Source: a virus (lineage: Duplodnaviria > Caudoviricetes). From it: a stretch of DNA of 64,000 nt. Below the pieces are notes generated by a model, which was not told where the DNA came from, ran no database searches, and worked only from the letters and a program-made list of their open reading frames with translations. Of this stretch, positions 5,478 through 54,852 are shown one piece after another. Position 1 is the first letter of the stretch. Every line of letters starts with the position of its first letter. The translations under genes were made by a program, and so were the position numbers. The stretch is taken from positions 25,508 to 89,507 of the IMG/VR virus record IMGVR_UViG_3300037067_007554, one strand, 5' to 3'.

Positions 5478-7288
5478 ATGATGACCCCGCCGCCCCAACC
5501 TCCGAAGAAAATCCTGACCAAGGGCCTCCTTCCCACAGTTGACTACTTGCAATACCTCGACGAGCTGGATGCCATCAAAGCGGAAAGACAGGCAGAAGCA
5601 CTCACTACCATACGTGACGGACGGAAACTCACTTACAGTCACGGTCCTACAACTTCAAAGTGGAGAATACGGGACTAAACCATGCTCCAGACCTTCAACG
5701 ACCTGACCATCGACCCCGACAACATCGAAGCTATCTCTTCTCCAGTGGAGAGCAGGTACGCCACGATCTACCTGAAGCGGGGCAGGGAAATCCACGTCTC
5801 CAAGGAAACGTGCGAGGTGCTGAAGAAGCATCTCGCCGATTTCCGCCGAAACCATGACCCCTGATCCTCCCATCCGCTGTCAGGCGTGCGCCAAGTACAC
5901 GGGCACGTTCTCCAAGGACGGCCAGTGTCCCAACCAGGCCACGGAGACGGTCTGTGTCGGCTCCCGCAAGACGCTGCTGTGCAAGGAGCACGCCGACTTC
6001 GCCAGGTTAGGCGTGTGGGCGATGGTGACGACAAAAGAGGTGCCGTGGGTGGAACCAAGCCAGGAGAATGACGATGCCAAGATGTGAAGAGTGCAAGTTC
6101 TGGGAAAGGAAAGGCGAGTCCACCGGATTGTGCCGTATCGGCCGGCCGACATTTCATGCACTGGTCATCCCCTTTGAGACTTATCGAGCCGAAGCAGCCA
6201 CAACTGGTATATGGCCGACTACGCTGGATTCGGATTCGTGTGGTAAAGGCAAGCCGAAGGAACTCCAATGACCAAACGCCATCGACCCGCCGAGCCCCTC
6301 TTCGCTCAGGCTGTCCCTGCCATCGCCACCAGCATCCTCGTCTTCACTCCCGGCCGCCTCACCGTTGGCGAGTTGAAGCGGCAACTCGACCTGCTGGACG
6401 TGGGCGATGACGTGGTAGTCAAGACGATCAACGGCGACAATTGGCGGCTGCTCGAACACATGAGCTTCTGTAGGAGCAAAGGCGAGGTGGTGCTGTGGTA
6501 AAGCAGAACCTCAACCCCGATCCCAATGAACGGCCGCCCCGAGTCCTCCTCCAGGACATCCTCGAAACGACCTACATCTTGTGTCGTAACTGCGGGATGC
6601 CCGTGCATGTCCCGGTAGTCCCCATTGAGGTAACCCCAGAAAAACTGTGGCCCTGTCCGTACTGTGGAACCAGCCCGTTCTTACCGAAAGGAAACCCATG
6701 ACTGACGAACCAGATATGGACCTCTCCCTCCGTTTCTACTCCTTCAAGACAACCATCAGCGAGAACGCCAACACCGGCTATGCGAACGACGCCGATGCCC
6801 TCGGCACGATGATAGCGGCCATGCTTGTATCGCTCCACACGGCTCGAAATGATACGTCTTCCGGTGACGTTTCTCCCTTCCGCATCCTGGCCGAGGGCAT
6901 TACGACGTTGAAACCCTATGCCTACGCTCACGAGGAATCGGCGTTCGTCCTTGCCGCCGAAGACTTCTGCGACGAGGACGACCGAGAAACCGAGAGGAGA
7001 GAGGAGGCCGAAGAGGAAGCTGCAAAAACGGTTGTCCAGGCTGGTGCGGACCAGATCGACCAGACGGATGACAAGGCCAGGAATACAGTGAGGTGAACCA
7101 TGGGTGACGAAACCGACTGTCACGATGCCTGCAAACAGAGCAAGCGGGCAATGATGCCGGATGAGATGATCGAATTCCTCTTGGCACCTGCTTTTAGCCC
7201 AGAAGTCTTTCAGGCCATAAACGCCATTATCGACGCCTACGACAATGTCTACGTCGATGCAGAAACCAAGACGGAGGACAAGACGTAA
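5478..7288 (+). CDS. Run of eight small coupled hypothetical ORFs: 5478-5678, 5682-5864, 5854-6087, 6068-6271, 6268-6501, 6495-6701, 6698-7096, 7100-7288
   Basis: Head-to-tail tiling with overlapping start/stop codons; several CxxC motifs. Confidence 0.65.
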
Positions 7289-7459
7289 GCAACGTGGGAA
7301 TGCGGTTGCAGTACGGTCGGGAACCGCAGCCCTGGACAAAAGGGACAAAACAGGTCATTTGTGCCCAAATTGTCCGAGTGGTCAAGAAAAGCGTTGAATT
7401 CCCATTGTGAATAGTGAAAATCAGGTTCGTTGTCCGGGCAGACAAACAAATCAACCTAC

Positions 7460-7511
7460 GTGAGGGCCGCTGAATTCTTCTGCCCGGAGAACAAGCGGCC
7501 CTCACTTTTTT
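7460..7511 (+). terminator. 11-bp GC stem (GTGAGGGCCGC/GCGGCCCTCAC) plus T6 upstream of the helicase; terminator or attenuator
   Basis: Perfect inverted repeat followed by TTTTTT. Confidence 0.6.
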
Positions 7512-7579
7512 GTCAGGTCCCAAAGCACAAGGTAAAACGACGGCACGTCGAGACGGCTCGCCGCTGATCCGGAGGACCA

Positions 7580-8632
7580 ATGGCAAGAAATCACCGAGCG
7601 GCAATCCGCGAGGATGGATACCCAACGACATCGCATCCCCCCGGACAGCCTCAATCTGTCCCGCTCTACAGCCTATCCGTCCGGTCCTACCAGGACATCA
7701 AGGTCAACCCCATCACCTGGCTCTGGAAAAACCGCCTTGCCTTTGGCAAGTTTTCTCTCTTCGCGGGTGTTCCGGGTGCTGGTAAGACCTACGCCATGTG
7801 CGATCTTGTAGCCCGCTGTTCCCAAGGTGGCATGTTTCCAGACGGAACCCCTGTACCCCATTGCGAGTCACTCATTCTCTCGGCCGAAGATGGAGCTGAA
7901 GACACCCTGAAGCCCCGCCTCCTTGCCCATAACGCCGACATGAACATGGTGCACCACCTAGACGGAGTACGAACCCAGGACCGGGACCTGTTCTTCGCCG
8001 TCTCAAGATACACAGACCTGCTGGACAAGTGGCTGGATGGTCACCCCCACGTTCGTCTCATCGCCATCGACCCTATTACAGCCTTCATGGGAGACGACGT
8101 TGACGACTACAAAAACGCCGAAGTTCGAGCGGCCCTCGGTCCCTTGGCTGCAATGGCAGACCAGCGAAAAATTACCATCCTTGGAATCACTCACCTGAGC
8201 AAGAGCCAAACCAAGAGCATCAACCGGGTTATTGGCTCCATCGCCTACGTTGCTGCCGCTAGGGCGGTCTGGCTCATCGACCACGATCCCAACGAACATG
8301 GTCGCAGGCTGTTTCTCCAAATCAAGAACAATCTCGGACACGCCGATGGACTCGCTTTTTCTATCAATCCTCCCGCCCCCATCGCATGGGAGTCAGATCC
8401 CGTGACCATGACGGCCGACGACCTCAGCGACACGACGCATACGACATCACAGGAAGCGGCTGTCGAATGGTTGCGGGACTCGTTATCCGATGGTCCAGTT
8501 TCTGCCCGTCAGATTCTGTCCCAGTGTGAACGGGAAGGTATCTCAAAAAGGACCTTGGGCCGTGCGAAAAAGGCTCTCAAGGTCATCTCCAAGCACAAGG
8601 AGTCATCCTGGTTTTGGATGATTCCAGAGTAG
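7580..8632 (+). CDS. AAA_25 / RepA-like (RecA-fold) helicase
   Basis: Walker A GVPGAGKT, SAEDG, Walker B LIAIDP, ITHLSK, GSIAYVAAAR, IKNN. Confidence 0.88.
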   Translation: MARNHRAAIREDGYPTTSHPPGQPQSVPLYSLSVRSYQDIKVNPITWLWKNRLAFGKFSLFAGVPGAGKTYAMCDLVARCSQGGMFPDGTPVPHCESLILSAEDGAEDTLKPRLLAHNADMNMVHHLDGVRTQDRDLFFAVSRYTDLLDKWLDGHPHVRLIAIDPITAFMGDDVDDYKNAEVRAALGPLAAMADQRKITILGITHLSKSQTKSINRVIGSIAYVAAARAVWLIDHDPNEHGRRLFLQIKNNLGHADGLAFSINPPAPIAWESDPVTMTADDLSDTTHTTSQEAAVEWLRDSLSDGPVSARQILSQCEREGISKRTLGRAKKALKVISKHKESSWFWMIPE

Positions 8633-8656
8633 GCTGTGCTCCCACCCAAAAGCTGG

Positions 8657-8807
8657 AAGGATGCCAACTTTACTACCGTGGCATCCTTGGCATCCTTGGC
8701 AACGTTGCCACAACTCCAACAATAACACTAACTTACGGTGAGAGAGCAGTAGTAAAAAAAGTCAAGGATGCCAAGATGGCCAAGGTATAGAAATTGGCAT
8801 CCTTGGC
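8657..8807. repeat. Iteron-like GGCATCCTT(GGC) direct and inverted repeats after the helicase
   Basis: Direct copies at 8680, 8689, 8796; inverted AAGGATGCC at 8657 and 8764. Confidence 0.7.
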
Positions 8808-9067
8808 TCTGTTGAGTAGGCGATTTTTCACTATTCGATTGCTGGAAAGCCAAGTTTCTGACCCCAAAGGTTTTTGGGACGAAGAAAAATGGGTGAGTAT
8901 GTTGACTATTACAGCAGAGCGATGGGGGACCCTACCCCCTGGGCTCCTTCGGCTGCATGTAAGTCATTGGTAGCAAACATGTTGCATTCGCACCTTTGTA
9001 TGACACCCATCCTGACTAGCCCTACCTAGCCGCTGTGAGTACGTGCATTTGGGGGTCTCCTGACTCA

Positions 9068-9149
9068 CATTGACTACACCTCACTGTAGTCAATGTCATC
9101 ACAATGACTACAGTAGTCATTGGAATGAGTCATCAGAATGACTACACAT
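9068..9149. repeat. Cluster of TGACTAC palindromes
   Basis: CATTGACTACA-6nt-TGTAGTCAATG (9068-9095) and CAATGACTAC-A-GTAGTCATTG (9102-9122), plus a further AATGACTACA. Confidence 0.75.
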
Positions 9150-9483
9150 AGACCAGGCGGGTGTCGCAATTTTGACACACACCCAGCTATCGGGTGGAAA
9201 AGCAACTAAACCTGTTTTGCGGCAACGGGTTACGGCAACGGCCTGGCTTGCAAAGTGTAGTCACTTTGATGAATCGTGGTGCTTAAACACCAGAAAATGT
9301 GACCACACCAGAATTGCATGGTGACATACGTAAATTGTTTCGCAGAAACACTTTACGCGAATTTTGTACACGCCAAAACGGGTGGAAAGGTGCGTATTGT
9401 ACAGACTTTGGTGGTTGTCTGGCCGCGAAACCTGCGACCGACTGACAAGAGGTTCCCCGATCCCTTTACAAGTGAGGTGTGAC

Positions 9484-10086
9484 ATGGCTAAGAGCAAAAG
9501 TGTTCCGATTGAGTTACTGCAACGTGTTGCTCGTGGCGAGGTATCGGTAGCGGATGCTCTCGCCGCAATGGGCGACCGGCCGACAACGGCAGCGGGTCGA
9601 GCTACGGGCCGGCCTGTTGGGCGGCCGAAGGGTGAGGATCGGCTTATCGTTATCGTCCGGGAATGGCGAGCGCTGGAGGACAAGGCGGAGCGTACTCCCG
9701 CTGAGGAGGCAAGATTGGCGAAGCTACGAAAGACGGTCGCAAACCCCCCCGAAAGGCTAGGCTTGCTGACAGGCGAGAAAACAGCCATGGCCCCCGATGG
9801 AAGGGTTGGTGTCCGGGTCCGCGGTGACGCCCACCGGGGTGACAAGCCTACGTGGAGAGGGAGGAAGTACACGATGGTTCCCGTCCGAGAAAAGCGTATC
9901 CTACGGCGGAAAATGCTCATGGAACGGGATCTCGTCGGCCGTCCAGCGCAGGCCCCAGGGTACTGCCTGCCGAGGGAGTACGAGTGCAATATCATCCCGC
10001 TCTATCAGCGGCAGGCAGTGCTTTGCCTCATCCAGGAGCATGTTGTGGACATTGCCATGGGAAGCATGATGCTGACGATGGCATGA
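9484..10086 (+). CDS. Hypothetical protein, Arg-rich, with GRPVGRPKG AT-hook-like motif
   Basis: GAGGTGT Shine-Dalgarno (SD) before ATG 9484. Confidence 0.7.
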   Translation: MAKSKSVPIELLQRVARGEVSVADALAAMGDRPTTAAGRATGRPVGRPKGEDRLIVIVREWRALEDKAERTPAEEARLAKLRKTVANPPERLGLLTGEKTAMAPDGRVGVRVRGDAHRGDKPTWRGRKYTMVPVREKRILRRKMLMERDLVGRPAQAPGYCLPREYECNIIPLYQRQAVLCLIQEHVVDIAMGSMMLTMA

Positions 10087-10099
10087 GATGATTCGACAG

Positions 10100-10129
10100 A
10101 AAAAAGCCCCCAGAAATGGGGGCTTTTTT
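10100..10129. terminator. Bidirectional intrinsic terminator
   Basis: AAAAAAGCCCCC-AGAAAT-GGGGGCTTTTTT. Confidence 0.85.
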
Positions 10130-10238
10130 CGTTTCCACCCCTCTTTTGGAAGCCGGCCGGCAATTTTGCTTTTGTTGTGAGGCCGGTCGGTTGACCGGCA
10201 AACCGAGAACGAGAACCCTTGAACAAGTGAGGTGTGCT

Positions 10239-10595
10239 ATGAGTACCGTTATGGATTCCCCGATTGCTGCGAAGAGGCCGGTGTCAATGGCTGCGATCCC
10301 CCCTAACGCCACAAAGGATGTGGTGCTGGCCATGTTGGGTGCTGGAACGATCACGGCACAATCCGCAGCCGCTTGGCTTGACGCTGACACGGCCGCAAAG
10401 GTTGCCGCGGCAAGGGCGCTTCGGCCGCAGAACAACCTCCGGTGCAAGGTCAGTGAGAAGAAGGCGTTGAGCATCTATGGGCTCCAGAGGATGCCAGTCA
10501 CTCTCTACGTTGAGCAATGGGAGCGGCTCTTGGCGTTCGCCGATGAGGTTCGCACCTTCATCGTCACCCATACGGCCGAGTTCTCCCGCAAATAG
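10239..10595 (+). CDS. Conserved hypothetical protein (KVSEK.A.SIYGLQR.PVTLY.EQWERLL domain)
   Basis: SD GAGGTGT; recognisable conserved C-terminal motif. Confidence 0.75.
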   Translation: MSTVMDSPIAAKRPVSMAAIPPNATKDVVLAMLGAGTITAQSAAAWLDADTAAKVAAARALRPQNNLRCKVSEKKALSIYGLQRMPVTLYVEQWERLLAFADEVRTFIVTHTAEFSRK

Positions 10596-10677
10596 TCCGG
10601 CCGAGGGGGTGCAATTCAGCCCGGCCCTGCAACCCGGGCTTTGTTCTGCCCCTTCCCATTAGCAAGCGAGGTGTACC

Positions 10678-13389
10678 GTGAAGCCCATCGTTCACAAGCT
10701 GACTATCGACACCCTAATCCGCTCTGGCAAGAGTTGGCTACAGGGCAACGGCGTGACCGTGCGGAAGGTCGTGGCCTACTACCGCAAGGAGTACGGGCTG
10801 TCTTCCCATCGGGTGAGTCAACTCCGGCGGGGACTGGCGACGAGCTAGGCCCCTGACAACGTGCCGCCAGTGGAGTGCCACCGTGCCGTAGTGTGAGCCG
10901 GTGCGGAGGCTTTCCCCTTGCGTTTCCTTAGACCTGGAGGTGTGACCATGCTCAGCATGACGTGTGAGATTGTGCGCCGGCAAAATGCCCGGCGGGACGG
11001 CCGTTGTTTCCCCTCCCTCAAAACGGTGAGGGAGGCGTTCGAGAGCGACAGCCAGGAGGATGAGAACCGGGAGTACCAGGAGTTCGCCAGCCCGTACTGG
11101 GACCAGGCGAGGGGCATGAGTGACCTGTAGAGGTCCGTGCCGCCAATAGGACGTGATACACCGCCCCGTCAGCGTGTCTCGATACTCTCGCCGGGACGAC
11201 GGGGCGAGGTTTCGTGCCCTACCCATCCCTTGGACTGCGAGGTGTACCATGTGTCTCGGACTGACGTGCGGCCAGATAGCAGCCCTGTGGCGGGGTGGCA
11301 ACCAAGAGGCTGCACCGTACTTCATGGCGAGGTACGGGAGCAAACAGGACTGCTGCAAGGTGGTTCTGGAGGTGTGCCGCCAGGACGGACCGTACTCTGC
11401 GGACTGCTTTGTCCGGGAGTTGGAGAAGCAGTTGGCGCTCTTGGAGGAGAACGCCAGGATCAGCGTAGCGTAGTGCCGCCAGAGTAACCCTATTGGCCCC
11501 GGCTGGTAGGCGGGACTTCACGCCGTTGCGTTTTGCCGGCGGAATACCGATGCCGAGAGTTGAGGTTCGATTCCTCATTGGGCCACTTGTGTAGAGATGC
11601 CCACTCCCTGTGGCGGCCGGGGAGAGGGTCTTAGGTCCATGCCGCCAGCCCCCTACACAAGAGGTGTGCCTGTGCTACTCAACTGCCCCACAACTGCCGT
11701 AACCATCATCAACGCATCGCCGTTGCTCAAGACCTGCGATGAGGCCCAGGACCTCTGCGACCAGGTTGCTTCCTGGCTCTCGGGTGGCGAGAGTTACGAC
11801 CCGGAGTTCCTTGCGGAGAATCTCACGCAGATCGCCATGGACCTCCGACAGTCGATGCAGGAGGCCGTGGCCTGATTGTCGAGGTAGCCCACAAGACGTA
11901 GACTGCGGGGCGAACCTTGCCAGTGTCGTCGCTGGCCGCAGTCCTGTATCCCCATGCCGCCAGGGGGAAGTGGCGGTTCCTACTGAATGCCCTAGAGGCA
12001 GGAGGTATCGCAATGAGTCGTTACCAGATGAGCGATGGGACGGTTGTGGACACCAAGAACGCTACCGCATCGTGGGGTGAATCCACACGATGGGACGGCC
12101 ACAACCATATCAGCGTGGCCACCGGGAGCCAGTGGGAGCACCAGACTCTCTACCGCAGCCGCAAGGGCCGGTACTACGTCGAGCACACGAGCCGGCGGGA
12201 TGGCTCGACGCCTGGTGCCGAGTGGGTGAGTTTAGAAGAGGCTTGCCGATGGCTGCTGGCCAACGAGCACAGCCCCGAGGATGAAAACTTCCCCGAGGAT
12301 CTCAAGGACCACATCGACAAGGTGAGCGAGTAGACACCTCCCAGGAATGCCGGCGTACTGCCAGCCGCCGGCCCTCTGGTACATGTCATGCCCCAGAACG
12401 CTCCAGCAACGCCAGGATTGCGTCGGACGCTGGGCTGTCCAAGTAGACTTGTGCCGCCAAGACGCATTCCTGAGCGTCTGGATCAACGCTAGGGGCGACG
12501 TGTGAGAAAAGAATGCCCGATGGGCGACAGACTCGTATCGTCGTGCCGCCAGATTACCTAGAGTCCCTTACTGTGAGGTGTACGATGCTCGGTTACAGCG
12601 TGTGGTGTGCCTCAAGGGCATACCAAGAGGAGTACGACCAGACCAAACGGGTGGCCGCGTTCACGTTCCTGCTGGACGCCGTGGACTATGCCGCCAGTCT
12701 GGCGAGAAACAGCGTCCGCTGCGTGCTGATCGGCCCTTACGGGCTGGCAACTGAGTACGTGAGAGACGAGACCGATGGTTCCGGGTACACCATCCGGGAC
12801 GCCAACGGGCGGAAGTAGTGCAGTCAACAGGGGCAGGCAATGTCCTTTCGTGCTCTTTCGTGTCTTTTGCTGTCCTTTCGTGTCTTTTCGTGTCCTTTGT
12901 ACCCCTTGGAGGTGTGTGATGGCTGTCAAACGTAACCTGATTCCCCGTCCGGGTGAGGGCAAGGCGTTCGCCTATGCCTATCAGGCTGGGCGAGATTCGG
13001 TGGCTGAGTGAGCCGACCTGGCCGCCGCCCTCCTGGCCTAACCCGCCAGAGTGGGCAGCGAGCGGGCCGACTGAGTGCCCGTGGTCCCTTAGATGGAGGC
13101 GTGGAGGATGACCCCAACCAAAGCTATCGAACACACCGACGACATGATGGGAAAGTTGACGGCCCTGGTCGCCCACCTGCACAACGAAGCCGACGAGGTT
13201 GCCGAACAGTGGTACGGCCTCGGACAGGCTGGCGGACAACGGGAAGACCATGCCGCCAGCCTGTTGACCAGACTTCGCCCCCACTTGGAGGCAATCGAGA
13301 GCTTCGCCCATATCTGCGGACAGCAGATTACGGGCTACGTGAAAGACCCGTTCGGCCGACAGGCGGCGATGGAGGCTCCAACCGTCTGA
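10678..13389 (+). CDS. Eight small early-region genes, each with its own SD: 10678-10848, 10948-11130, 11249-11473, 11672-11875, 12013-12333, 12585-12818, 12919-13011, 13108-13389
   Basis: Each start is preceded by CCCT(T/A)..(G)GAGGT/GGAGG at normal spacing; functions unknown. Confidence 0.65.
12841..12900. repeat. Six tandem 10-bp units, consensus TGTCCTTTCG
   Basis: tgtcctttcg tgctctttcg tgtcttttgc tgtcctttcg tgtcttttcg tgtcctttgt. Confidence 0.85.
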
Positions 13390-15854: not shown

Positions 15855-15919
15855 TTTACAAGTGCAGCGGTTATGGTAGAATGCGAGCGGCCCAGTTGGA
15901 GCTGGGCCGCTCTGAACAC
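15855..15919 (+). promoter_or_regulatory. sigma70-type promoter plus 11-bp hairpin heading HNH gene 1
   Basis: TTTACA-16-TAGAAT (extended TG), then GAGCGGCCCAG/CTGGGCCGCTC. Confidence 0.7.
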
Positions 15920-15944: not shown

Positions 15945-16697
15945 ATGTCTGATGATGATTCTACCATCCCCCGTGGCTTCTGCCAGTGTGGCTGTGGACA
16001 AAGGACCAACCTGTACAAATCCACACGATGTCAACTCGGCCAGTTCAAGGGAGAGCCCCGCCCCTATATGCGGGGGCACCACAACCGAGCCCGAAAGCAA
16101 ACACAGCAAATCGGATTTGAAGAGGGACTCCGGCGTGGTGCAGAAATGCCCCCTCTGCCAAATGTCACTGGAGTTGAGATTAGGCCCATCCCGGAATTTC
16201 CGGGGTACGCCATTGGTGACGATGGCACCGTATGGGGATGCCGCCACGCCTGGGGATTTCACAACTGCTGGCACTGCTTAGTCCCCTATTGGTATGGTCG
16301 TCACAACAAGGTTAAGTATCTCGTCGTTGGTCTGCGTGCAACTGGAGCGAAGAAAAGAAAGAGGACGCTTGTGCACATCCTCGTCTTGTCAGTCTTTCGC
16401 GGACCGAAGCCCACTGGACAAGAAACCCGCCATTTGGATGGACACCCTGACAACAACAGGCTCAGTAACCTTGTCTGGGGAACGTCCCTGGATAATACCG
16501 CAGACAAGATCAAGCACGGTCACGACTATTTCAAACCAGGTCAAGACCATCCCCAAGCGAAACTGACCACAGAGGCCGTTCTGGCCATCCGAAGTGACAG
16601 CCAAGCGAACTACAACGAGCTAGCCCTCAAATACGGGGTCTCGCCGTCACTGATTAGCCTTGTAAAGAAACGGAGGGCATGGAAGCATTTGCCGTGA
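15945..16697 (+). CDS. Free-standing HNH homing endonuclease (CxCGCG N-terminus, NUMOD4-like, HNH, C-terminal HTH)
   Basis: RPIPEFPGYAIGDDG; VHILVL..F.GPKP...TRHLDG.PDNNRLSNL.W.T..DN. Confidence 0.88.
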   Translation: MSDDDSTIPRGFCQCGCGQRTNLYKSTRCQLGQFKGEPRPYMRGHHNRARKQTQQIGFEEGLRRGAEMPPLPNVTGVEIRPIPEFPGYAIGDDGTVWGCRHAWGFHNCWHCLVPYWYGRHNKVKYLVVGLRATGAKKRKRTLVHILVLSVFRGPKPTGQETRHLDGHPDNNRLSNLVWGTSLDNTADKIKHGHDYFKPGQDHPQAKLTTEAVLAIRSDSQANYNELALKYGVSPSLISLVKKRRAWKHLP

Positions 16698-19272: not shown

Positions 19273-19372
19273 CGTAGCCCCTGACCCGGCCTCTCGCTGA
19301 CAGCGATATGCCGCCAGCGAGTGAGCGGGCCAGTGTCCGTAACTTGCAACCCCTGGATTCGGAGGTGTGAAC

Positions 19373-19973: not shown

Positions 19974-21531
19974 ATGACTATTGAAATTATCCGACGTTAC
20001 ATCGAGGGGTCGTGCCAACAACAAGACGGCACCCTTGATACCGATGCCGCCAACAAGACACTTTGCCGGCTGACCCGAGCAGGTGACGAGGAAACCCGTC
20101 ATGCTGCCGGCCTGATGTGGTCCGCCTACTTAGCGTCAGACCTGTCAGAGCACGACGCCATGCTCCAGGTCATTCACGGAGTCTAGCGTTTACCCCATGT
20201 CCCTTAGAAGTGTCCCATGATTACGCAAGCAGTTCCCGACTACATGACCTTCCAATACTGGTACGACCTGCCAGTCAAACGGAAAAAGTGGCCCTACAAG
20301 AGCCTGGATGATTGGGTGGCGAGAAATCCAGGTCGGGCGGCAGGTGTTGCCCACTTCGCACCGCAGGTCGTTCGGTACTATACGAGTGGTACTTTTGGCC
20401 CAGGTGGAACCGGCGATGCAAACTGGCGTCCCATGGGGGCTCAACGGGAAATCACACTGGCTGAGTACCATGAGTTAGTTGAAACTCCACTTTGGGAACG
20501 TCCCGCAGTCATGCCCGTGTGGCGTGGTGCCACCGACCTGACGCCGATACGCAAGAATGGGAAGAAATCCAAGCCGATCAAGGTGAAGGTTGCCGCCGTC
20601 CACCAGGTCACAGCCGCTCGTTGCCAACCTGCGCCCATGCCGCCAGTGAAGCCGACCATCGAGCAGCGATACGCCAACTACTGCGGGGCGTGCTCGATGC
20701 TGGAGAAGCCCCCTGAGGACATGGGGGTGTGGATGCTACGGATGGCGGGGATGGGAGTGCTGTAGTTGCAGTACGTGAGACACGACAGTAGCTTACAGGA
20801 GTACCTTCCCGCCCCAGAGGGCTCTACGGAGCCCGAAGGGATGGAGAGTTACGAAACACCACTACACGAAAGGCGAGAACCATGCCCCTAAACCTGTACG
20901 AAGACTCAAAGGAAAATCGTGTGCTGTGTAACTGCTGTGCGGCCAGCCGTGGGCTGTGCAAGAACCGCCTGGACACTGCCGACGACGACGCCGAATGCGA
21001 GGACTGCGGGTTGAACGTCTTTGAGGAGCGGATCGCCGCTTGTGTTGAACAGGCGAAGGCGGCCGGATTCGAGGTGTTCACCAGCGATAACAAGCTCGTC
21101 GTACAGAAGCCGCTCCAAATCCAGAACCAAACGGCGGGATACGACAATCGAGCCGAAGCGGCCGGGCTGTAGCCGGTCCCCGCCCCGCCCGGCGAAGCAT
21201 TCAGCGGGGGCCGACAACTGAGCCCGAGTGACAACTAAGGAGGTGCGAAATGATGCACTGGCAATATGACGATGTGTATGGAAAGTATCTTGGTCATCCA
21301 ACGCCCTGCGTGGTGTTCCACGAGATCGACCCAGCCAGCGATCAACCCGGAAACGCCGGCATGGTCTGTGAGAACATCAGCCGGCCAGAATGGGGACACC
21401 TGATTGAAGCCGCCCCGCGAATGCTGGAGCGACTACGGGCGATCCTCACCGCCTACGACGCAAATGACAGCCACAGCGTCCGTGAGGAAATTGAGAATGC
21501 CCGCTCCATCGTCGCCAAGAACACCGTCTGA
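19974..21531 (+). CDS. Four hypothetical early genes: 19974-20186, 20217-20765, 20882-21172, 21250-21531
   Basis: SD-led ORFs; the last carries LIEAAPRMLERL, a common phage motif. Confidence 0.65.
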
Positions 21532-24500
21532 CGGTCCCCACCTCACCCCGGTGTGGCGCCCGGGGCCTGGCGGTGACCGTCAACGCGGGGGACAGACCTC
21601 CGCACTCGCCCGCTGAGTGAGCGGGAAAAAAAACGGGAGACGAGCCGTGAGAGTAACAATCGACGAACAGGGCCGCGGCCTGCAGATCCGACCAGGCGTG
21701 GACGTGGGCGCCTACGGTCTGGGCCTGGCTCCTGGGGATCGCGTCTGGGTGCCGCGAGCCCAAGCGTGGGGGCGAGTGGTGAGTATCGGGACCCGCATCG
21801 AGAGTGGGACGCCCGGCACCGGGCAAAGCAACCGCGTCCGAGGCGAGGTTGAGATCGAATCGTAGCGAGCCAACTCGCCCGCTGAGTGAGCGGGGCAAGG
21901 AGACGAGAGAGATGATTACTGATGAAAGAATCCGCGACATTTTGGCCCGCTGCACGGTGGACGGCAAACACACATCGGGCGGCGACGGCAAGCTGCCAGC
22001 GAAGGACCGGGGGTTCTGCCCGATCGACGGCGTGCCAGACGAGACAATCGGCGTGCAGCAAGTCCGCGATGCGATTTCCCGTGTGGTTGTGGACGGCCGC
22101 GATGATGATCGAGACATCCTCGACGCAATCGAGGCCGCCTACGATGTGGCGTGGCTCGATTTCTGCGCGCGAGAACATCCAGACTGGGTGCGATCCGCGG
22201 TGGATGACGTGTGCTTCACTGCCTCACTGTCCAACACCTAACGCCCCCAGGCACTCGCCCGGGAGACGCCGGGAAGAAGGAGATGAGACGATGAAATGGT
22301 ACGAGAAAAACGACGTGGTGGCTGAACTGGTCAAGCGATTCCCCGAAGCCGACCCCGGACCCGCAGGGCTGTGGGGATTCGTCAACGCAGGATGGGAGGG
22401 GCCAGTTGACGACAACGACCTGGACAACTGGGCCGAGGCGTGGAAAGACGCCGAGCAGGACTGGGCCGAGGCGTGGAAAGGCACCGGAGGCGGTTAGAAA
22501 CCACCCACCACCAAGCACTCGCCCGCAGAGTGGAGCGGGAAAAGGAAAGATGAGATGACGACCAAAGCGCAACTTGGAATCACCCCCGAGTTTTTGCGAT
22601 TCACGGATGCCGTAGCCTACCTGACGTGGTCTCTGAGCGGGCATCCCCCCTATCCCGCATCGGCGGCTCCGGGCCTGGCGGGGGAGGCGGTCGCCCTGCT
22701 GCCAGCATTTCGCCACTGGATGATCGCCAACGAGTGGGCAATGACGGAGGCTCAGCAACTCCGCGACATCCTCGACGTCCACCCGGAGTTGGGCTATTGG
22801 GACACGACGCCGATGTCGGCTGATGTGTTGCAGGCAATACGGATTTTTGAGTTGTCCCGAGACGATGCTGTCCGATTGCTGGGCGGCTCGCCGTAACCGC
22901 CGCAAGGCACTCGCCCGCAGAGAGGAGCGGGGCCGGCACCGGGTGACGAGGTGCAGGAGATGAGACCATGCGTAAGGTATACCGCACCGTGAAAGAGGCC
23001 CGCAACGCCCTCGCCCTGGACACCGGGTTTGACCCATTCCACACGGGCTACGTCAAAGGACGTTGCACCAAGATCGCTCTCGCGCGGCTCGGCTATCCGG
23101 TAGACAAGAAACTCGCGGAGCAACAGGCAGCCGAGCGGCGACGAAAGCTCCTGACGTCCGCAGAAGCAGAGAGCCTGCTCCGCCCAGTCGGCCGCTGTGC
23201 CAAGGGCCACATGTGGTCCGTGGACCAGCACGGGCGCGATTGCCCAGAGTGTGGCGGACCCGAGATCATGGATATGGAGTGTGACAACGGGCACAAATGG
23301 AAGGCCGCCTACAATGCCGGGCCTGAGTCCGATAAATGCCCAAAATGCGGAGAGTATTACGTGTAGCACGGTCCCCGCCTCGCCCTGGTACTGCCAGCCC
23401 GGGGCCTGGCGGTAACCGTCCGCGGTGGCGCATGACCTCCGCACTCGCCCGCAGAGTAAGTTGGAGCCAAAAAGGGGAGACGAGACGATGGACGCCACAC
23501 ATCATGGCATGACGATTCTCGCCGTGCGCGAGATTGAGACTGGACAAATCGAAACGTATGAATGTCTAAACTACGACACGGCGCGCGCTCGCAGCGGCCG
23601 ACCACGGCAACGATCCCGAGGACTGGGAGCCGGCGGAATCCGCTGAGTGATTTACGGGGTGAGAGACATGGGTAGGCCATCAAGAATATGGACACGTGCG
23701 CAACGACGACTGCTTGGTACTGTGCCCGATGCAGTCGCCGGCGCAAAACTCGGGTGCTGCGCCTCGACCGTCCGAAACTGGCGACGACGCTGGGGGATCG
23801 CCGGGTATTCCGAAGGTCCGCGTTGTACCGCCGTGACGAACGATGCGATCTTCGTTGGAATCTGGTGGTCGAGCGCGAATACTGAGGAGGTGGAAGTCCG
23901 CCTCAATCTCACCACGAGGCAGGTACGCAGCCAGAGCATCCGATTGCGCAGACATGGCGTGGTGCTAAAAGCGATGCCACGGCATCGGCGGCGCAAACCA
24001 ATTTTCTGACCTGCAAATTTCCTGAAACGAGACTCGCCCGCTGAGTGAGCGGGGCAAGGGCAAAAGGAAAACCAAACATGACTATGACGTTGTCCGACAT
24101 CCACTACAGGCTGAACACAATGCAGTCGAGCAAGCAGGCGTTCGACGTGCGAGATGAACTCATCGAGCTAACGCGGATCGTCAGCGACATGCACGCCGCG
24201 CTGGGCGACCTGTCGCGAAAGGTCGAAAGACTCACGGAAGCAGCGGCCAAAGCGTCTTGCCAATGCCCTCTGACTTAGCCCACGAAAACAGAGGTGAACC
24301 ATGCGAACGCGAGAAGAACTCCGCGAGTGGCTGTGCGGTGAGATCGTCGATGTCATGGACAGCTACGATTGCAATGAGGACTCTGCTCGGCAACACATTC
24401 GTGACATGCTCGTCGAGGGGCAGGACAGCTATAGCGACGTGACGGATGATGAGGTGCCGGTAGTGCTACGGCTAATTGAATCAGGAAGGAAAAGCGGCAA

Positions 24501-24619
24501 GAAGGGCAAGACCACCAAGCCCAAGAATCGGCACTCGTGGAATCGGAACTCGTGAAAGAATGTGAAGGAACTCAATACCAAGCACTCGCCCGGGAGAGCC
24601 GGGTAAAGGAGATGAGACG
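21531..24619 (+). repeat. Eight ACTCGCCCG-hairpin leader elements, each 5' of a small gene
   Basis: ACTCGCCCG at 21604, 21873, 22253, 22517, 22909, 23443, 24032, 24584; about 85-bp extended copies start at 21531 and 23368. Confidence 0.85.
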
Positions 24620-25009
24620 ATGAGGATACAAGAGACACGCCGACTGCGGCAGTATGCAGTCTGCCAAACAGCACAAATCCAGGCACCGATGCTGGACCGA
24701 CCCGTGACGCAACCAGAACACTGGAGTGACGAGGCGGCGGAAGCGGCCAAGCGAAGCGGCTATATCGTCTACTTTGCACTCGCAACCACTGGAGAGAGTC
24801 TCTGGGATTTCGAGCGATTCGCCCATGTCCCCATGGAGCACGCTCATCCCGTGGAGGTGCTCGACCACGTCCGAGCCTCAGCTCCGCCGTGGTGGGATGC
24901 AGACTCGGCAATCTACGCTTCGTATCGCGGAGGGCCTTGGTATCCGCGCGATTGGGATGAGGTTCTCGGAAAAATGGAAGTTCCACCCGCAATGGTAATC
25001 GACGAGTGA
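21647..25009 (+). CDS. Cassette-like small genes: 21647-21865, 21912-22241, 22291-22497, 22555-22896, 22968-23366, 23488-23646, 23668-24009 (HTH-like), 24078-24278, 24301-24555, 24620-25009
   Basis: Starts follow the repeat leader or GAGAYGAGAC/GAGGTG; proteins are unrelated to each other. Confidence 0.7.
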
Positions 25010-25621: not shown

Positions 25622-25649
25622 TTGACAGATGGTTCGCCGGTAGTACAAT
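25622..25649 (+). promoter_or_regulatory. sigma70-type promoter
   Basis: TTGACA-16-TACAAT. Confidence 0.65.
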
Positions 25650-48602: not shown

Positions 48603-50184
48603 TTAGGGGTTAAGGTTTTCGTTTTTCAGCCACGGACTTCCACCCTCCGCCATCTCCACCGCCGCTACCAGCTCGTCCGGCTCCAGGAACGGCCGCAACT
48701 GCTCCACGGTCGGCGGCTCGCCGTGCACCCGTCGCCACTCTCTAGCGAGGCACTGGACGTTGGAGCGAAGGTCAGAATCAGCCGTAATAGACATCTTCCT
48801 GCCGAGCCATGTTGAACTCGCTCCAAACGCCTTTCATCTCCTTAGTGAAGTTGAACCCGTCAACAGCCGGCACGTAGGCCCCGCATTGCCTGAGAGTCGC
48901 CAGAATGCACGCTGGACAATTCCCAGCCGCATCCCGTAATGAAGGAAGGGCGGTATCAAGGGCTTGCAGAAACGCCACTGGAACGCCATAGATACCGCCT
49001 TCGTTGTCGAGCGGGTAGTCACCTCTTTTTGGCAACTTCTCCAGCAGTAGACTCATGGGCGACTGTACTTGTTCCATGAGTTTGCACACCCCGCAGACCC
49101 GTCGGGGGTTCATCGTGCATCGCTCCTCATGCCGTCGTATGTGGCCAGCGGAACACCCGGACTTCTTGCAGAATTCGCAGTAGTAGCGGTTGACTCGCTT
49201 GCTCTTCATGGGAAGTCTCCTGGAACGTTGCTGCGGAGGTCGGAGGCTGTTGGTGGTTCAGTCATTGTCTGCAAGTACCACAGCCTCTCCATTGCACGTC
49301 GGGCACACGCACCAACGCTGTGGATCGATTCGATCAACGAAGGACTGGATATACCTCTCCAGGGTCACCTTCAGTTCGGAATACTCTTTTGCTTGAATCT
49401 CACCAATCTGCTCATAGCCTGATTTGTCCCGGTACTCGCCGACGATGCCAAGAACCCGCTTCGTGATTTGTGTTTCCGTGACCGTTTTCCACTTCGGGCG
49501 ACGAAACCCAACGTCCCTGCGGACCTTTCTGGGCGTGATTTTTAGCACAGCGTCAACGCCTAAGATGCCGATGTTTCGGCAATCGTGAAGCCGATACAGG
49601 CCGGGGTGCTTCGCCGTCTCCGCAACGACAGCTTCAGCGACCAGTTGGAATACCGCCGGCATGGATATGTGACATGGGTACTTATGTTGGATGGCCCGAT
49701 GAAACTTGAGATTCGATGGGAAATCCACGACGACGTAACTGGGCATGTCCACCGGCTCACAGTCGAAGTCGATGACCTCCCACTCCTGGGACTCTGGCTC
49801 CTGTGGATGGTCAACCCAAGCCGTCTCGTACAACTCGACGTGTTCTCCGCACCACACACCATCCTCATCCCGGGTGAATGCCTCCAGTGGGAGTTCACTC
49901 TCCAACGTCGTGACCACTCCGGCGAATTCCTCCTTGAGGCGAAAACCAGTCAATTGGCGAATCGGCTCCCGTTCGACGAAAATCGAGGTTACGTCGCCAT
50001 CGACCATCGCCCAGTGCTCATTGCCCGGACATGGTACGGCCATGGCACCGTTAATGAGCGTGACCTTGCGTTTCCAGTGATCACACTCAATGTATGAGGT
50101 TCCATCCTTCTTCATCACGAGCAATGGTTTCACGTTAGGTCTCCTTTTGTGTGTTGTATCAGATGGCATCGGCAGGCTCGTCAT
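48603..50184 (-). CDS. Three hypothetical genes: 48603-48794, 48778-49209 (Cys-rich), 49258-50184
   Basis: Tiling ORFs. Confidence 0.65.
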
Positions 50185-51021: not shown

Positions 51022-52742
51022 GTGGATTAGCGGGGCTGTTGTCCATGACGGGGCGGGGCGGTCGTGCTTCGTCCCTCTGGTCTTGCAGATACTCCATTGC
51101 CGCCTCATAGAGCGAGTCCCCGAGCCGCCCCGCACTATCGCAGAGCCGCTTGGTCTTGCCGAAACTCGCCATGCCCAGCTGTCCCTTGCCGAGCAGCGTG
51201 TAAATGATTACCACCTGGTCGGCACCAAGGGCCTTGGCTGCGTTACGGGCGACTGCCACTTCGGAACTTGGGTTCCAACTCATTTCCTACTCTCCATGAC
51301 GGGGCGGGGCGCCGGCTCGGGCGGGCGGGTCAGTTCCGCGGCCTCGGCCGCTCGCTGTTGCCGGCACCGCCTAACGAACCATTGCCGCAACGCCGGTACG
51401 TGATCGTCCATCACAGGATGGTCCGTCAGGTAAAACTCATCGCCATGAATGCGGTTCCCCGATTCGTCAACCGGCTTGAACGACGGGTCGTAAAGCACGT
51501 CGTCAATCAACTCCTCAACGTGACGCAACTCGGCTTGCAACGTGTCCCGCTCCCGCTCCAACTCGCCGATCCGGCGAAGGTGGGCGGTGGCAACCTGCTG
51601 CCAGTCAATCACCGAAGTCGATGGGCTTACGCTGACGATGGGGTCTACTGGTTCTGGCATGGGGGCTCCTTCGATTCGCGGGGCCTTCGCAGCGGCAAGG
51701 GCTTCGGCTGGGGATGGGGTGTCAGTCATAGTCAATCCTCCTCGTCGTAATCGTCGTCCCATTCATCCTCGCCCCATTCGCAGTCTTTGCAGCCGGGGCA
51801 CTCTGTCTCGCCGTGGAAGTGACAGACGCATTGGTCGCCACCGCAGAAGCAGTTGACGGAGCCTGTTCCGTTGCACCCGTCCTCAAGGCCGGACTCGTCG
51901 AATAGTTCTTCGTAGGTCCCCTGGGCACCGCACCAGCAGGTAATCACTTGGTCGTCGGGTTCGTCTTCGGCTTCGCACATGATTCGTTTCCTTTCTCCCC
52001 GAACGGTGCCCCGCAGTTGCAGCAGCGAGCCCAGCATGGGGCGTCGGCGATCAGCAACGTCCGTATGCTGTGACACTGCGGGCAGGGCGGGCCGGGTTGG
52101 GTGTTAGGGGTCATCGCCACCTCCTCTTCTGGCCTTCGGCCATTCGCCACAGTTCGTCCTCGCAGACCGACACGACGTAGACCAGCGGGCCGGTTATCAG
52201 GAGGAGCAGCAAGAGCAGGGTCATCATGGGGATTCCTTTCCTTCTGTTTCACGGAGTGCAGCAAGCCCCTCCCTGATAATCTTCCCGGCGGTCCTGGCCG
52301 GCACTCGCCCGAACTGGTCGTCGCACGCCCAGCACACGACGAGGCCGCCGAGCGAGACGATGGTCGTCTCAGACTCTTTCTCGCAAATCGAGCAACGACG
52401 TTTGAGAGGCTTCACGGTTTTCACCCGCTCGTTCTGCGGAAGTCAAACATCTATCTTCACCTTGGCTTTCTCGGCCGCGGCCTGGGTGGAGTAGGCATCA
52501 CTGATCAGTGCATATCCGCGAATCGCTTTTTCGCCATCGGCGAGCGTTGGCAGCCTCTCCACGTACTCCAGCAACGTGGCTAGGGCATCGGCAGCGGTCA
52601 CGTCTTCTGCCAACGTTTCCGACGCCTCGGGAAAGTGCTGCGGCAGAATCTCTCCGCACTCTCGAAGCAAGTGCTCCAGCCGCTTTAGCCGTTCAATCGC
52701 CGTCTTGATGTCGATGGTCGGTGTGATTGGTTGGTCAGGCAT
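51011..52742 (-). CDS. Small hypothetical genes: 51011-51283, 51280-51729, 51732-51980 (Cys/acidic), 52224-52424, 52443-52742
   Basis: Tiling ORFs. Confidence 0.6.
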
Positions 52743-52765: not shown

Positions 52766-53929
52766 TCAAACAAGCGTCTGTTGCTCACCCGGCGTCCTCG
52801 GCTTTCGCTTCGGCTTCAGCGCTTGCTCCCGGGCCATGATGGCGGCCAGCGTGCCAACCTTATCCCTGCCAACGAGCCCCGGGTCCGCGTCGGCCTGAAT
52901 GCGGAGCTTGCCGAGAGCGGCCAAATCCCTGTATTCCATCGCCCGATCTGTGTACTCGCCCCGGAGCCGGTTGCTGGTCTCGCGGATGGAGTCGGACTCC
53001 TGCTGCACCTGGTCGTTTGTGGGCTCGCTCGCGGCCACCTGCTGCGATACGTCGGGCGGTTGGTCCGAATGGACTTGGGGTAGGTCAGACGCAGCGGGCT
53101 CGCCACGGACAACCGTCACGGCTTCCTGCGCGTGGGCGAAAGCGGTGAACTCTTGTGGTTCGGGCTCTTGTGTGATGGCCGGTTTGGTAAGCCTGTCCGC
53201 AAGGTTGTCGGTTCGGGACCCAGCCTGCTCTTGCTTCGTCGGTGCGACGATCCCCATACGCCCGTGGAACATGTGTGCCCCCACCTCCTCGGCAACGTAG
53301 TCGCCTCCAAGCTCTTCCGGAAAAGCAGACCGAAGAGCTTCAGCCTCGGCGCATTTGTCGATCATCCCGATGGGACGATCCGCCCACATCGAATTGGGAC
53401 AGCCATTCTTTTTTGAGGCATAGGTTTCGAGCCAGTAGACCCGCCGGCCCGGGAATGAGCACCTCTGGCCAGCCACCATCTTGTAGACCGTCAACTGGGC
53501 CCACTCAGGAAAGCTCACCGTGACCTCGCCGTACTTGTTTCCCTTTCGGTCCACGTCATCCCATGTTTGAGTCTTCATTGGCCCATGAACGACTTCGTCG
53601 TGGCCTGCGTAGTCGTGTGTCCGATGGGCCGTCGTGCGGTGTTCGGCGATCCCCGGCCAGACGGTTTCCACTTCACACTGCCGCTCCTTGTCCCATATCG
53701 GTACGATGTGAACCGTCCGCTTGAACGGGTCCAGCCCCCGGGCTCGGCAATAGGAGAGGGCGAGAATCACGGCATCGGTACTACGCGCCGACGGGAAAAT
53801 CGCATCCGTCAAAGCACGCCACCCCGACTTGTCGATGCCGAAACGCTCCTGAATGGCCGGATGGTACGGCAGTCTTGCCGCCATGATCGCCGGCAATTGT
53901 TCCTTGGATTTCTCGGTCATTGTGCTCAC
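52766..53929 (-). CDS. bet: Bet/RecT-family single-strand annealing protein
   Basis: YCRARGLDPFKR.VHIVP..GIAEHR.A.R...YAG; W...P..M..K.AEA.ALR.AFP. Confidence 0.85.
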   Translation of the reverse strand: MSTMTEKSKEQLPAIMAARLPYHPAIQERFGIDKSGWRALTDAIFPSARSTDAVILALSYCRARGLDPFKRTVHIVPIWDKERQCEVETVWPGIAEHRTTAHRTHDYAGHDEVVHGPMKTQTWDDVDRKGNKYGEVTVSFPEWAQLTVYKMVAGQRCSFPGRRVYWLETYASKKNGCPNSMWADRPIGMIDKCAEAEALRSAFPEELGGDYVAEEVGAHMFHGRMGIVAPTKQEQAGSRTDNLADRLTKPAITQEPEPQEFTAFAHAQEAVTVVRGEPAASDLPQVHSDQPPDVSQQVAASEPTNDQVQQESDSIRETSNRLRGEYTDRAMEYRDLAALGKLRIQADADPGLVGRDKVGTLAAIMAREQALKPKRKPRTPGEQQTLV

Positions 53930-54852
53930 TTTTTGGGCTCCTTGATTCGTAGGACTCGGTAACTTGACTGACTGACGTACTTCGCCGCCTCCGGCATCGC
54001 GGCCAGTAGGGCGGTTGTATCGACACGCTTTTGCCCCTTCTGCGATAGGTAGGTGAGCATCCGGCCATCGGGCAATAGCCCACCTTCGCTATCTCCAAGC
54101 AGCGCCAGCAGCCTTTCCTTGGCGGTCTTCTCCTCTTTCTCCAAAAGCAACCTCGCGGCGTTGGCCTCCTGAAAATCCTCCAGCAAGGCGACTGCATTCT
54201 CCACCTGACACAGGTCGGCCACGGTCTCCGGTTGCCGGTGGATTTTGGATAGGATCTCCAGCGGCGGTGGGGCACAATCGATCGGCGGGATCTTCGGCAG
54301 AACGTGGTTGTGCCAGAACGCCAAGTCTTTCTCCACCAGCCATGCGATGATGGGGTCATTGCGCGGAACCTTGAACATTTGCCATTCGAGCGTGAATCGG
54401 GCGATCGCCGCGACCACCCACACGCAGTCCAGTTCACTGACGTGACACTGGTGCTGACATTGGATATTTACGTGGTCTGGCACATCGTCTGTGCCAGGTT
54501 CGCCCCATTCTCCGACAGCGTTGGGACCAACGTACTTGGCCTCGACACCTTCCCGCTTGGTCCTTAATAGGGCATCATGGGATGCTGCGAGGATTCCGCC
54601 GTTTTCCTGTGACACCCGGAACTGATTCCGAATGATTGCATTGCCGAGCTGCTCCTCCGCAAAGTCGAGCAGCGGACCTTCAAGACGATTGCCGGTTAGC
54701 ATCGCCGCGGTCGGCTCGTCATCCGATTCATACACTTTGGAAAAGTAGACTTTGGCCGCATCGCCCCACGGGGACAAACCCGCAATCAAAGGGCTGTCGC
54801 TGGCCCCGATGTGGCTACGGCGCAGGTTTCGCTGATGGTCAGTGATGGGCAT
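53926..54852 (-). CDS. YqaJ-family (lambda Exo-like) exonuclease
   Basis: RR.HIGASD...G.SPW; G.RLE; AS.DA..VEAK; QCQHQ. Confidence 0.9.
   Translation of the reverse strand: MPITDHQRNLRRSHIGASDSPLIAGLSPWGDAAKVYFSKVYESDDEPTAAMLTGNRLEGPLLDFAEEQLGNAIIRNQFRVSQENGGILAASHDALLRTKREGVEAKYVGPNAVGEWGEPGTDDVPDHVNIQCQHQCHVSELDCVWVVAAIARFTLEWQMFKVPRNDPIIAWLVEKDLAFWHNHVLPKIPPIDCAPPPLEILSKIHRQPETVADLCQVENAVALLEDFQEANAARLLLEKEEKTAKERLLALLGDSEGGLLPDGRMLTYLSQKGQKRVDTTALLAAMPEAAKYVSQSSYRVLRIKEPKK

Follow-up and report, generated by a model that had tools for sequence, protein, structure and literature searches.

A conserved hairpin element before unrelated small phage genes: a candidate mRNA leader and homology block for cassette exchange

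Comparison with described systems

The accessory regions of phage genomes are sites of turnover of anti-host and anti-defence genes, and the way in which genes are expressed and moved there is known in detail only for the promoter-early stem-loop (PeSL) cassettes of T4-type phages. Here we describe a short element that stands before each of eight small genes in a 64,000-nt stretch of DNA, hereafter called the window, from a phage of the Caudoviricetes. The window comprises bases 25508-89507 of IMG/VR record IMGVR_UViG_3300037067_007554, a linear contig of 89.5 kb with an estimated completeness of 87%. The element is built in a fixed order: the pentanucleotide ACTCG, a GC stem of 5-6 bp with GAG in its loop, a purine tract, a Shine-Dalgarno (SD) block and the start codon. 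It does a boundary job like that of the PeSLs without a recognisable promoter, and it recurs nearly letter for letter across unrelated phages and many environments.

The defining feature of PeSL cassettes is a strong early promoter of the sigma-70 type whose upstream part is AT-rich (PMC2839356, PMC4122927). Like them, the element is a short conserved composite with a stem-loop, lying between the stop codon of one ORFan and the SD and ATG of the next; its copies are grouped in a variable region of small orphan genes, at points where related genomes differ by insertions and deletions of cassettes. However, no sigma-70 early promoter with an AT-rich region was found inside it. Furthermore, the stem-loops of PeSLs are terminators of variable position, whereas the hairpin here is fixed in place, nearly invariant and common to unrelated lineages. 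The start-associated sequence (SAS) of Cluster K mycobacteriophages is an SD-containing block before the start codons of many non-structural genes, with a suspected role in translation; about half of the sites have an upstream inverted repeat, and SAS is absent from host genomes (PMC3203893). The repeats of the extended form (ESAS) are 17 bp long with changes that do not support RNA pairing, and Pope et al. favoured DNA-binding proteins (PMC3203893). The layout is alike, with a conserved SD block before genes of different families and in one orientation only. In contrast, the 13-bp GGGATAGGAGCCC that SAS places 3-7 bp before the start codon is absent here, the block being GGAGAYGAGAC(G/C)ATG; the arms of the element are 5-6 bp with two compensatory swaps instead of imperfect 17-bp repeats; and SAS is confined to one phage cluster, whereas the element crosses unrelated phages.

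In the early region of T7, RNase III hairpins with stems of about 20 bp and internal loops lie between the early genes. There, too, a run of early genes on one transcript has a conserved hairpin before each, but the stem of the present element is far too short. Stabilisers at the 5' end, such as the ompA stem-loop and the polypurine or STAB-SD sequences of B. subtilis and phage SP82, protect the message and help ribosome loading. They resemble the element in having a stem-loop and/or an SD-like polypurine tract near the 5' end of the message, but they are features of single genes instead of a repeated, identical, mobile module, and they have no sequence similarity to it. Integrons likewise have co-oriented, promoterless single-gene cassettes separated by folded sites. 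The attC site, however, lies 3' of its cassette, is variable in sequence and is used by the tyrosine recombinase IntI, whereas the element is tied to the downstream start and only a serine recombinase is present; inspection found no GTTRRRY core of attC. A hairpin promoter of the N4 type, which is read by a giant virion RNA polymerase and has a stem of 5-7 bp and a 3-nt loop, was rejected because the loops of the element are 5-8 nt long. The largest open reading frames (ORFs) of two carriers of the element, 837 aa in G000 and 1198 aa in G001, match no polymerase family or motif. What is new in the element is its near-identity across unrelated phages, its compensatory stem and the absence of a promoter.

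The element array and its genes

The motif ACTCGCCCG occurs ten times in the window, against a mean of 0.96 and a maximum of 5 in shuffled sequences, and eight of these copies lie on the + strand within 3 kb (21604-24592). Those at 52303 and 61058, without hairpin and without gene-start context, are chance occurrences, and the motif is absent from the 25.5 kb of the contig that lie outside the window. An identical array is carried by contigs that come from other samples; it is therefore not an assembly artefact, and independent gene calls on those contigs give the same eight ORFs. Among the samples with this phage are 3300014204/3300014205, ERZ27247363, SRR8542065 and SRR18595300. Close relatives of the window phage are 100% identical.

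All eight copies are on the + strand. Copy 1 (21604-21625) has ACTCG, a CCCGCT/AGCGGG stem and a GAGTG loop, followed by an A8 tract, GGGAGACGAG and a GTG start at 21647 (72-aa ORF, 21647-21865). The same core is found in copy 2 (21873-21894; ATG 21912, 109-aa ORF, 21912-22241) and in copy 7 (24032-24053; ATG 24078, 66-aa ORF, 24078-24278). Copies 3 (22253-22273) and 8 (24584-24603) have the swapped stem CCCGG/CCGGG, with the loops GAGACG and GAGAG, respectively; both continue with AAGGAGATGAGACG, and their ATG codons at 22291 and 24620 open ORFs of 68 aa (22291-22497) and 129 aa (24620-25009). The stem CCCGC/GCGGG is found twice: in copy 4 (22517-22539), where CCCGC-AGAGTGGA-GCGGG is the commonest form in other phages (ATG 22555, 113-aa ORF, 22555-22896), and in copy 5 (22909-22931), which has the loop AGAGAGGA and an extra, self-contained spacer hairpin, GCACC/GGTGC, before the ATG at 22968 of a 132-aa zinc-ribbon ORF (22968-23366). 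Finally, the 3' arm of copy 6 (23443-23464) has decayed to GTTGG and pairs at four of five positions, one of them G-U; it is followed by GGGGAGACGAGACG and an ATG at 23488 (52-aa ORF, 23488-23646).

A preliminary description, made from the window sequence, had claimed eight conserved copies heading small genes, and this is borne out by eight + strand copies in 3 kb where 0.96 are expected in the whole window. The distances between copies 1-8 and the stop codon lying upstream of each are 72, 7, 11, 19, 12, 76, 22 and 28 nt, with 7-28 nt in six copies and longer gaps at copies 1 and 6; from the A of ACTCG to the start codon there are 43, 39, 38, 38, 59, 45, 46 and 36 nt, a range of 36-59 nt. From the end of the stem to the start codon the distance is 15-24 nt, except in copy 5 with 36 nt. 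The SD block in its full form is GGAGAYGAGAC(G/C), and GGAGAUGA matches the anti-SD tail at the 3' end of 16S rRNA over an extended length, which also favours an action in the transcript. GAGAYGAGAC(G/C)ATG had been assigned to most copies; GAGAYGAGAC adjoins the start codon exactly in four of the eight and partially in another three. The degenerate copy described before gene 23668 does exist, as the remnant CCGCTGAGTGA at 23640-23650 (+ strand), which has neither ACTCG nor a 3' arm; the upstream ORF stops within it, and the 113-aa gene that follows inside the array (23668-24009) has a weak helix-turn-helix match.

Copies 1 and 6 have a block of about 75 nt in common upstream. At 21531-21603 (+ strand), adjoining copy 1, it folds into an imperfect hairpin of about 52 nt (ACGGT...ACCGT), and its second copy (23367-23442, + strand) precedes copy 6. 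The three core subtypes of the window interleave along the array, and the upstream block is common to two of them. Degenerate relatives of the element without ACTCG precede gene 13093 (12999-13080, + strand), namely GGC-TGAGTGA-GCC, CCCGC-CAGAGTGGGCAGCGA-GCGGG and CTGAGTG; a second occurrence of GAGTGAGC, at 19319, is also a degenerate relative of this kind.

The array ORFs are orphans. BLASTP found no similarity among them, as had been stated from the translations, and the cassette proteins have no family match in Pfam or PHROG. ORFs 4 and 10 have no homologue among 5.8 billion proteins, and an atlas search with the cassette proteins returned viral hypothetical proteins only. ORF5 (22968-23366, + strand) forms with P0002-P0008 a small family restricted to phages, with a helical N-terminal domain containing an invariant DTGFDPF and a C-terminal double zinc ribbon ending in CPxCGEY. 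Structural matches to its AlphaFold2 model (pLDDT 89) are generic zinc ribbons only, none of them informative.

Recurrence, base pairing and exchange of the element

The core pattern ACTCGCCCGCWGAGTG(N)AGCGGG, with 21 fixed bases, was found in 27 metagenome contigs from many sample series and in six IMG/VR contigs, with one match in 32 million contigs (596 Gb) of prokaryote genomes. Because the pattern itself fixes positions 1-23, the loci found with it necessarily agree there, and information comes from how many they are, from their context and from A24, which the pattern leaves free and which 29 of 32 keep. Every instance precedes a small ORF (44-166 aa) with an SD, and the A of ACTCG mostly lies 37-52 nt before the start codon (31 to 67 nt in a few relatives with less certain start calls). 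Conservation starts sharply at this A and ends at A24. About 25 of 35 relatives also have a GC-rich hairpin, variable and lacking a U tract, whose end lies 0-2 nt upstream of ACTCG. This hairpin may serve as an attenuator, protect the 3' end of the upstream message or belong to the fold. In the other carriers the element is followed by about 35 different proteins with only five related pairs, and this recurrence supports the description of a modular unit heading unrelated accessory ORFs.

With a covariance model, four other viral records yielded exactly one copy apiece; G001 alone is complete (a 72.8-kb genome), and the other three are partial. Among the five carriers G000-G004, G000 and G001 have only distant structural proteins in common (25-33% identity), G002-G004 are a separate group, and not one protein is shared by the whole set. 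The carriers belong to more than one lineage, and the proposal that the element is phage-specific is not supported, since the same core occurs in phage lineages sharing almost no proteins. When the SD block was fixed in the pattern, only L156 was found. The loose pattern ACTCGCCCG-N-GAG-N-CGGG gave only single, contextless chance matches in IMG/VR, and no relatives were found by a locus search with the AAA ATPase protein or by megablast against GenBank phages. None of the Rfam 15 covariance models matched at the gathering score, with chance-level matches only at E values up to 5; a weak match to the atpB motif (18 bits, E 0.55) was judged to be chance.

The sole match in 185,579 species genomes lies on a 484-kb contig of a proteobacterial metagenome-assembled genome (L165, 1124-1156, - strand), where ACTCGCCCGCAGAGTGAGCGGGAGGAGTTCATG directly precedes the gene for a 327-aa protein with a signal peptide. 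This may be a true chromosomal instance or chance, one match being about the chance expectation.

For the hairpin itself, the instances free of the bias of the pattern are the eight window copies, those of a scan with both arms left free, and those in the contexts of the homologues of cassette ORF5. Instead of CCCGC/GCGGG, window copies 3 and 8 have the stem CCCGG/CCGGG, and the relatives L188 (loop AGAGTGGA) and L195 (loop TGAGTGAC) have CCGGC/GCCGG. These two swaps are double changes at two different base pairs, with pairing kept each time. Among about 42 instances there is a single one-sided change (L136b, at the terminal pair), plus the decayed arm of the copy at 23443. Six other matches of the free-arm scan have arms that do not pair and no gene-start context. 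The base pairing of the hairpin is under selection, and the covariation first noticed in the window is confirmed by a second, independent compensatory swap in relatives.

The loop varies from 5 to 8 nt, and so does the spacing from ACTCG to the 3' arm, which fits a stem-loop and fits poorly a two-box promoter or the operator of a dimer. In the three long-spacer instances (window copy 5, L134 and L144a) a closed hairpin accounts for the additional nucleotides; it would leave its flanks side by side in a folded RNA, which favours an action in the transcript. For the commonest form, RNAfold prefers a bulged hairpin of 9 bp (CUCGCCCGC/GUGG-A-GCGGG). It was rejected because two of its pairs are broken by the swap of L188 and L195, which keeps the simple 5-bp stem and thereby supports it.

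Related contigs differ by whole cassettes. L144 equals L130 plus 301 bp, made up of one element and one 71-aa gene, and the alignment blocks overlap by exactly the 24-nt core. L132 and L144 have a gene and its leader in common, with homology starting at the A of ACTCG and with different loop types and upstream DNA; L131 and L139 have a cassette in common, with homology beginning at the 5' edge of the upstream hairpin. The ORF5 family stands behind the element in the window and in L195, behind a different hairpin with the same AGGCAAAGGAG tail in L194, and behind no hairpin in L189, L191, L193 and L196. This occurrence behind different leaders, together with the junctions of the insertions and deletions, indicates that genes and leaders recombine independently, as with PeSLs (PMC2839356). 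The interleaved subtypes of the window and the upstream block common to two of them are what cassette exchange predicts. The proposal that the element is a homology block is in line with its position as the crossover point for gain and loss of cassettes in L130/L144 and L132/L144. Another contig, L152 (Ga0315284_10114401), has a tandem duplication of a unit of about 1.35 kb, within which two copies of the element stand at a distance of 1346 nt from each other.

Possible roles of the element and neighbouring features

From these comparisons of sequence we favour, with moderate confidence, a portable mRNA leader that acts on translation or stability and doubles as a homology block for cassette exchange. 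The leader, composed of ACUCG, the hairpin of 5-6 bp, the purine tract, the extended SD and the start codon, would provide every small accessory gene with a standard start of translation, insulated from the surroundings of the gene, and it may add a protected or recognised 5' structure. It would be part of long transcripts that the host polymerase begins at ordinary promoters lying further upstream. We infer folding in the RNA strand, an effect on translation or stability, and recognition of ACUCG and GAG by a host factor, be it the ribosome, an RNase or an RNA-binding protein. As the unit of 40-60 nt is nearly identical wherever it is present, it could also serve as a homology patch, and recombination between copies would insert, delete or swap single-gene cassettes. 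The window encodes RecT and a YqaJ/RecE-type exonuclease (52766-54852), and this pair could carry out the recombination. Such exchange would have brought the unit to eight genes here and to about 35 unrelated genes in other phages. If it acts as RNA, the element may be a compact natural insulator or translation leader, a marker of accessory genes in uncultured phages and perhaps an expression part.

Several points weigh against the portable leader. The covariation consists of two events, and the intact stems are without any G-U pair. The folding energies of single copies are near those of shuffled sequences (z -0.3 to -2.2), a modest gain that is expected from a stem of only 5 bp. The identity of the relatives is partly built in by the search pattern, the unbiased instances being the window copies, L188, L195 and L194. 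In L195, where the element separates two genes of one operon, it also supplies the upstream gene with its last five codons and its stop; terminating ribosomes would melt the hairpin there. The four other viral records have one copy each, which a special promoter or a regulator site would explain as well. Furthermore, the invariant ACUCG and loop GAG are not explained by pairing or by a simple insulating hairpin; these letters point to a reader in the host.

It is rather unlikely that the 24-nt core works as a promoter, used by a polymerase or sigma factor that has escaped recognition, either a host alternative sigma or a cryptic phage factor. Transcription would start just after the hairpin, and together with the upstream hairpin the core would form a terminator-promoter composite like that of the PeSLs. 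The sharp bounds of conservation (A of ACTCG to A24), a size like that of a phage-polymerase promoter, the short and fairly constant distance to the start codon, the variable GC-rich hairpin 0-2 nt upstream in about 25 of 35 relatives and the single copies in other viral records all suit a promoter, and several large carrier proteins without family match leave room for a cryptic polymerase. However, there is no sigma-70-like site in 21400-24700, and inspection found no sigma-54 or extracytoplasmic function (ECF) consensus. The nearest good + strand sites are TTTACA-16-TAGAAT with TG at 15855-15882, before the HNH gene at 15945, and TTGACA-16-TACAAT at 25622-25649; as the best predicted sites of the arm, these show ordinary host-type promoters in use by the phage. 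A promoter match within 110 nt occurs in one of 44 instances, with a background of 1.6%. In that instance, L134, TTGACG-16-TATAAT (an 11/12 match to sigma-70) ends 19 nt before ACTCG, and the element would be transcribed as part of the 5' untranslated region. The position of the element inside an operon in L195 likewise speaks against a promoter. No T7-type polymerase, DxDGD two-barrel motif (looked for in large ORFs) or sigma-70 region 2 was found in the five carriers, and no protein is shared by all of them. The internal spacing varies by 3 nt, a duplex promoter has no need of compensatory stem changes, and the upstream hairpins are without a U tract. The promoter named among the options of the preliminary description is weakened by the lack of a sigma-70 match and of a phage RNA polymerase or sigma factor, by the variable spacing and by the upstream promoter of L134.

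An RNA site for a specific factor is unlikely as well, and it overlaps with the mRNA leader without excluding it. Such a site could be cut by an endoribonuclease that divides a long early transcript into single-gene messages, or bound by a CsrA-like regulator at the GGA/GAG loop and the SD to time expression. The invariance of ACUCG and the loop letters beyond the needs of pairing, the one copy per array cistron and the long hairpin block upstream of copies 1 and 6 speak for it, as do the GGA in the commonest loop (AGAGUGGA) and that in the SD, about 18 nt apart. The stem, however, is too short for RNase III, and the loop type CUGAGUGA is without the GGA that CsrA would bind. It is quite improbable that cassettes are captured at the element by site-specific recombination, through the serine recombinase or another enzyme. 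The element would in that case be either a folded single-strand site of the attC kind or one of several partial copies of the attachment site of the phage. Co-oriented single-gene cassettes bounded by a conserved hairpin, a serine recombinase gene 2.4 kb downstream of the array and junctions exactly in the core would agree with this. Yet a search with the covariance model gave no copy next to the recombinase gene, the element is missing from the syntenic relative L190-L192 although the recombinase is there, the element is tied to the SD and start codon instead of the 3' end of the cassette, and junctions in an identical 24-nt core are equally expected from homologous recombination. The sites of serine integrases, moreover, are duplex sites of 40-50 bp. 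A duplex-DNA operator, whose inverted repeat would bind a dimeric repressor such as the weak helix-turn-helix protein of gene 23668 and control all cassettes together, as Pope et al. proposed for ESAS, is very improbable: a weak helix-turn-helix gene does lie inside the array and helix-turn-helix genes adjoin some relatives (L136b and L195), but the half-site spacing varies from 5 to 8 bp, the arms are only 5 bp, both stem variants occur in one phage, and no regulator is common to the carriers.

Other candidates were rejected as well. Sigma-54 and ECF readings of the core failed on inspection of spacing, an intrinsic terminator on the purine tract that follows the hairpin without a U tract, and a clustered regularly interspaced short palindromic repeat (CRISPR) or a repetitive extragenic palindrome with its associated transposase (REP/RAYT) on spacing and orientation.

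ACUC and the loop GAGU are complementary and interleaved with the stem, and a 23-nt H-type pseudoknot (ACUC with GAGU) is sterically possible. In three window copies U15 is changed to A without a compensating change; elsewhere, ACUC and GAGU do not vary. As an unlikely and speculative variant, one could imagine the 24-nt core folding on its own as an RNA, possibly into a minimal H-type pseudoknot, and being read by a component common to many bacteria, either the ribosome or a 5'-acting RNase; it would then be a universal 'expression tag' traded by unrelated phages with their accessory genes.

These phages generally seem to have a hairpin just upstream of the SD. In L191/L190/L192 (about 6200-10750), a syntenic relative with small genes followed by the serine recombinase, the leaders belong to a different hairpin family, CCCCGC-UCCGGGAUCG-GCGGGG and covarying forms of it, CCCCATC/GATGGGG for example, and a purine tract and an SD come after each of them. 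In L193 (Ga0642624_14895), another GC-rich phage, almost all genes, the structural ones among them, stand behind a repeated intergenic header peculiar to it, GCGCGAA-hairpin-GCGTC-N9-TCGCCCGGCAC and then an SD; two of its genes have the GGGAGACGAGACGATG block of the window without the hairpin element.

Besides RecT, the exonuclease and the serine recombinase, the window encodes DnaB and a Gad1-like protein of 308 aa (49258-50184, - strand), which matches Pfam Gad1 (Gabija anti-defence 1) with an E value of 2.8e-7 and 30.8 bits against a cut-off of 27. ARAGORN reports a tRNA-like gene at 11496-11586 (+ strand) with a four-base anticodon (gcgt) and without an assignable amino acid. The motif RTGCCGCCAG occurs in several repeat families (D4, D6, D8, D10, D13, D18 and D20) between 11373 and 25791, all on the + strand. 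Finally, a gap between + strand genes (12841-12909) holds about six tandem 10-nt units of TGTCYTTTCG, which could be origin iterons or a binding array.

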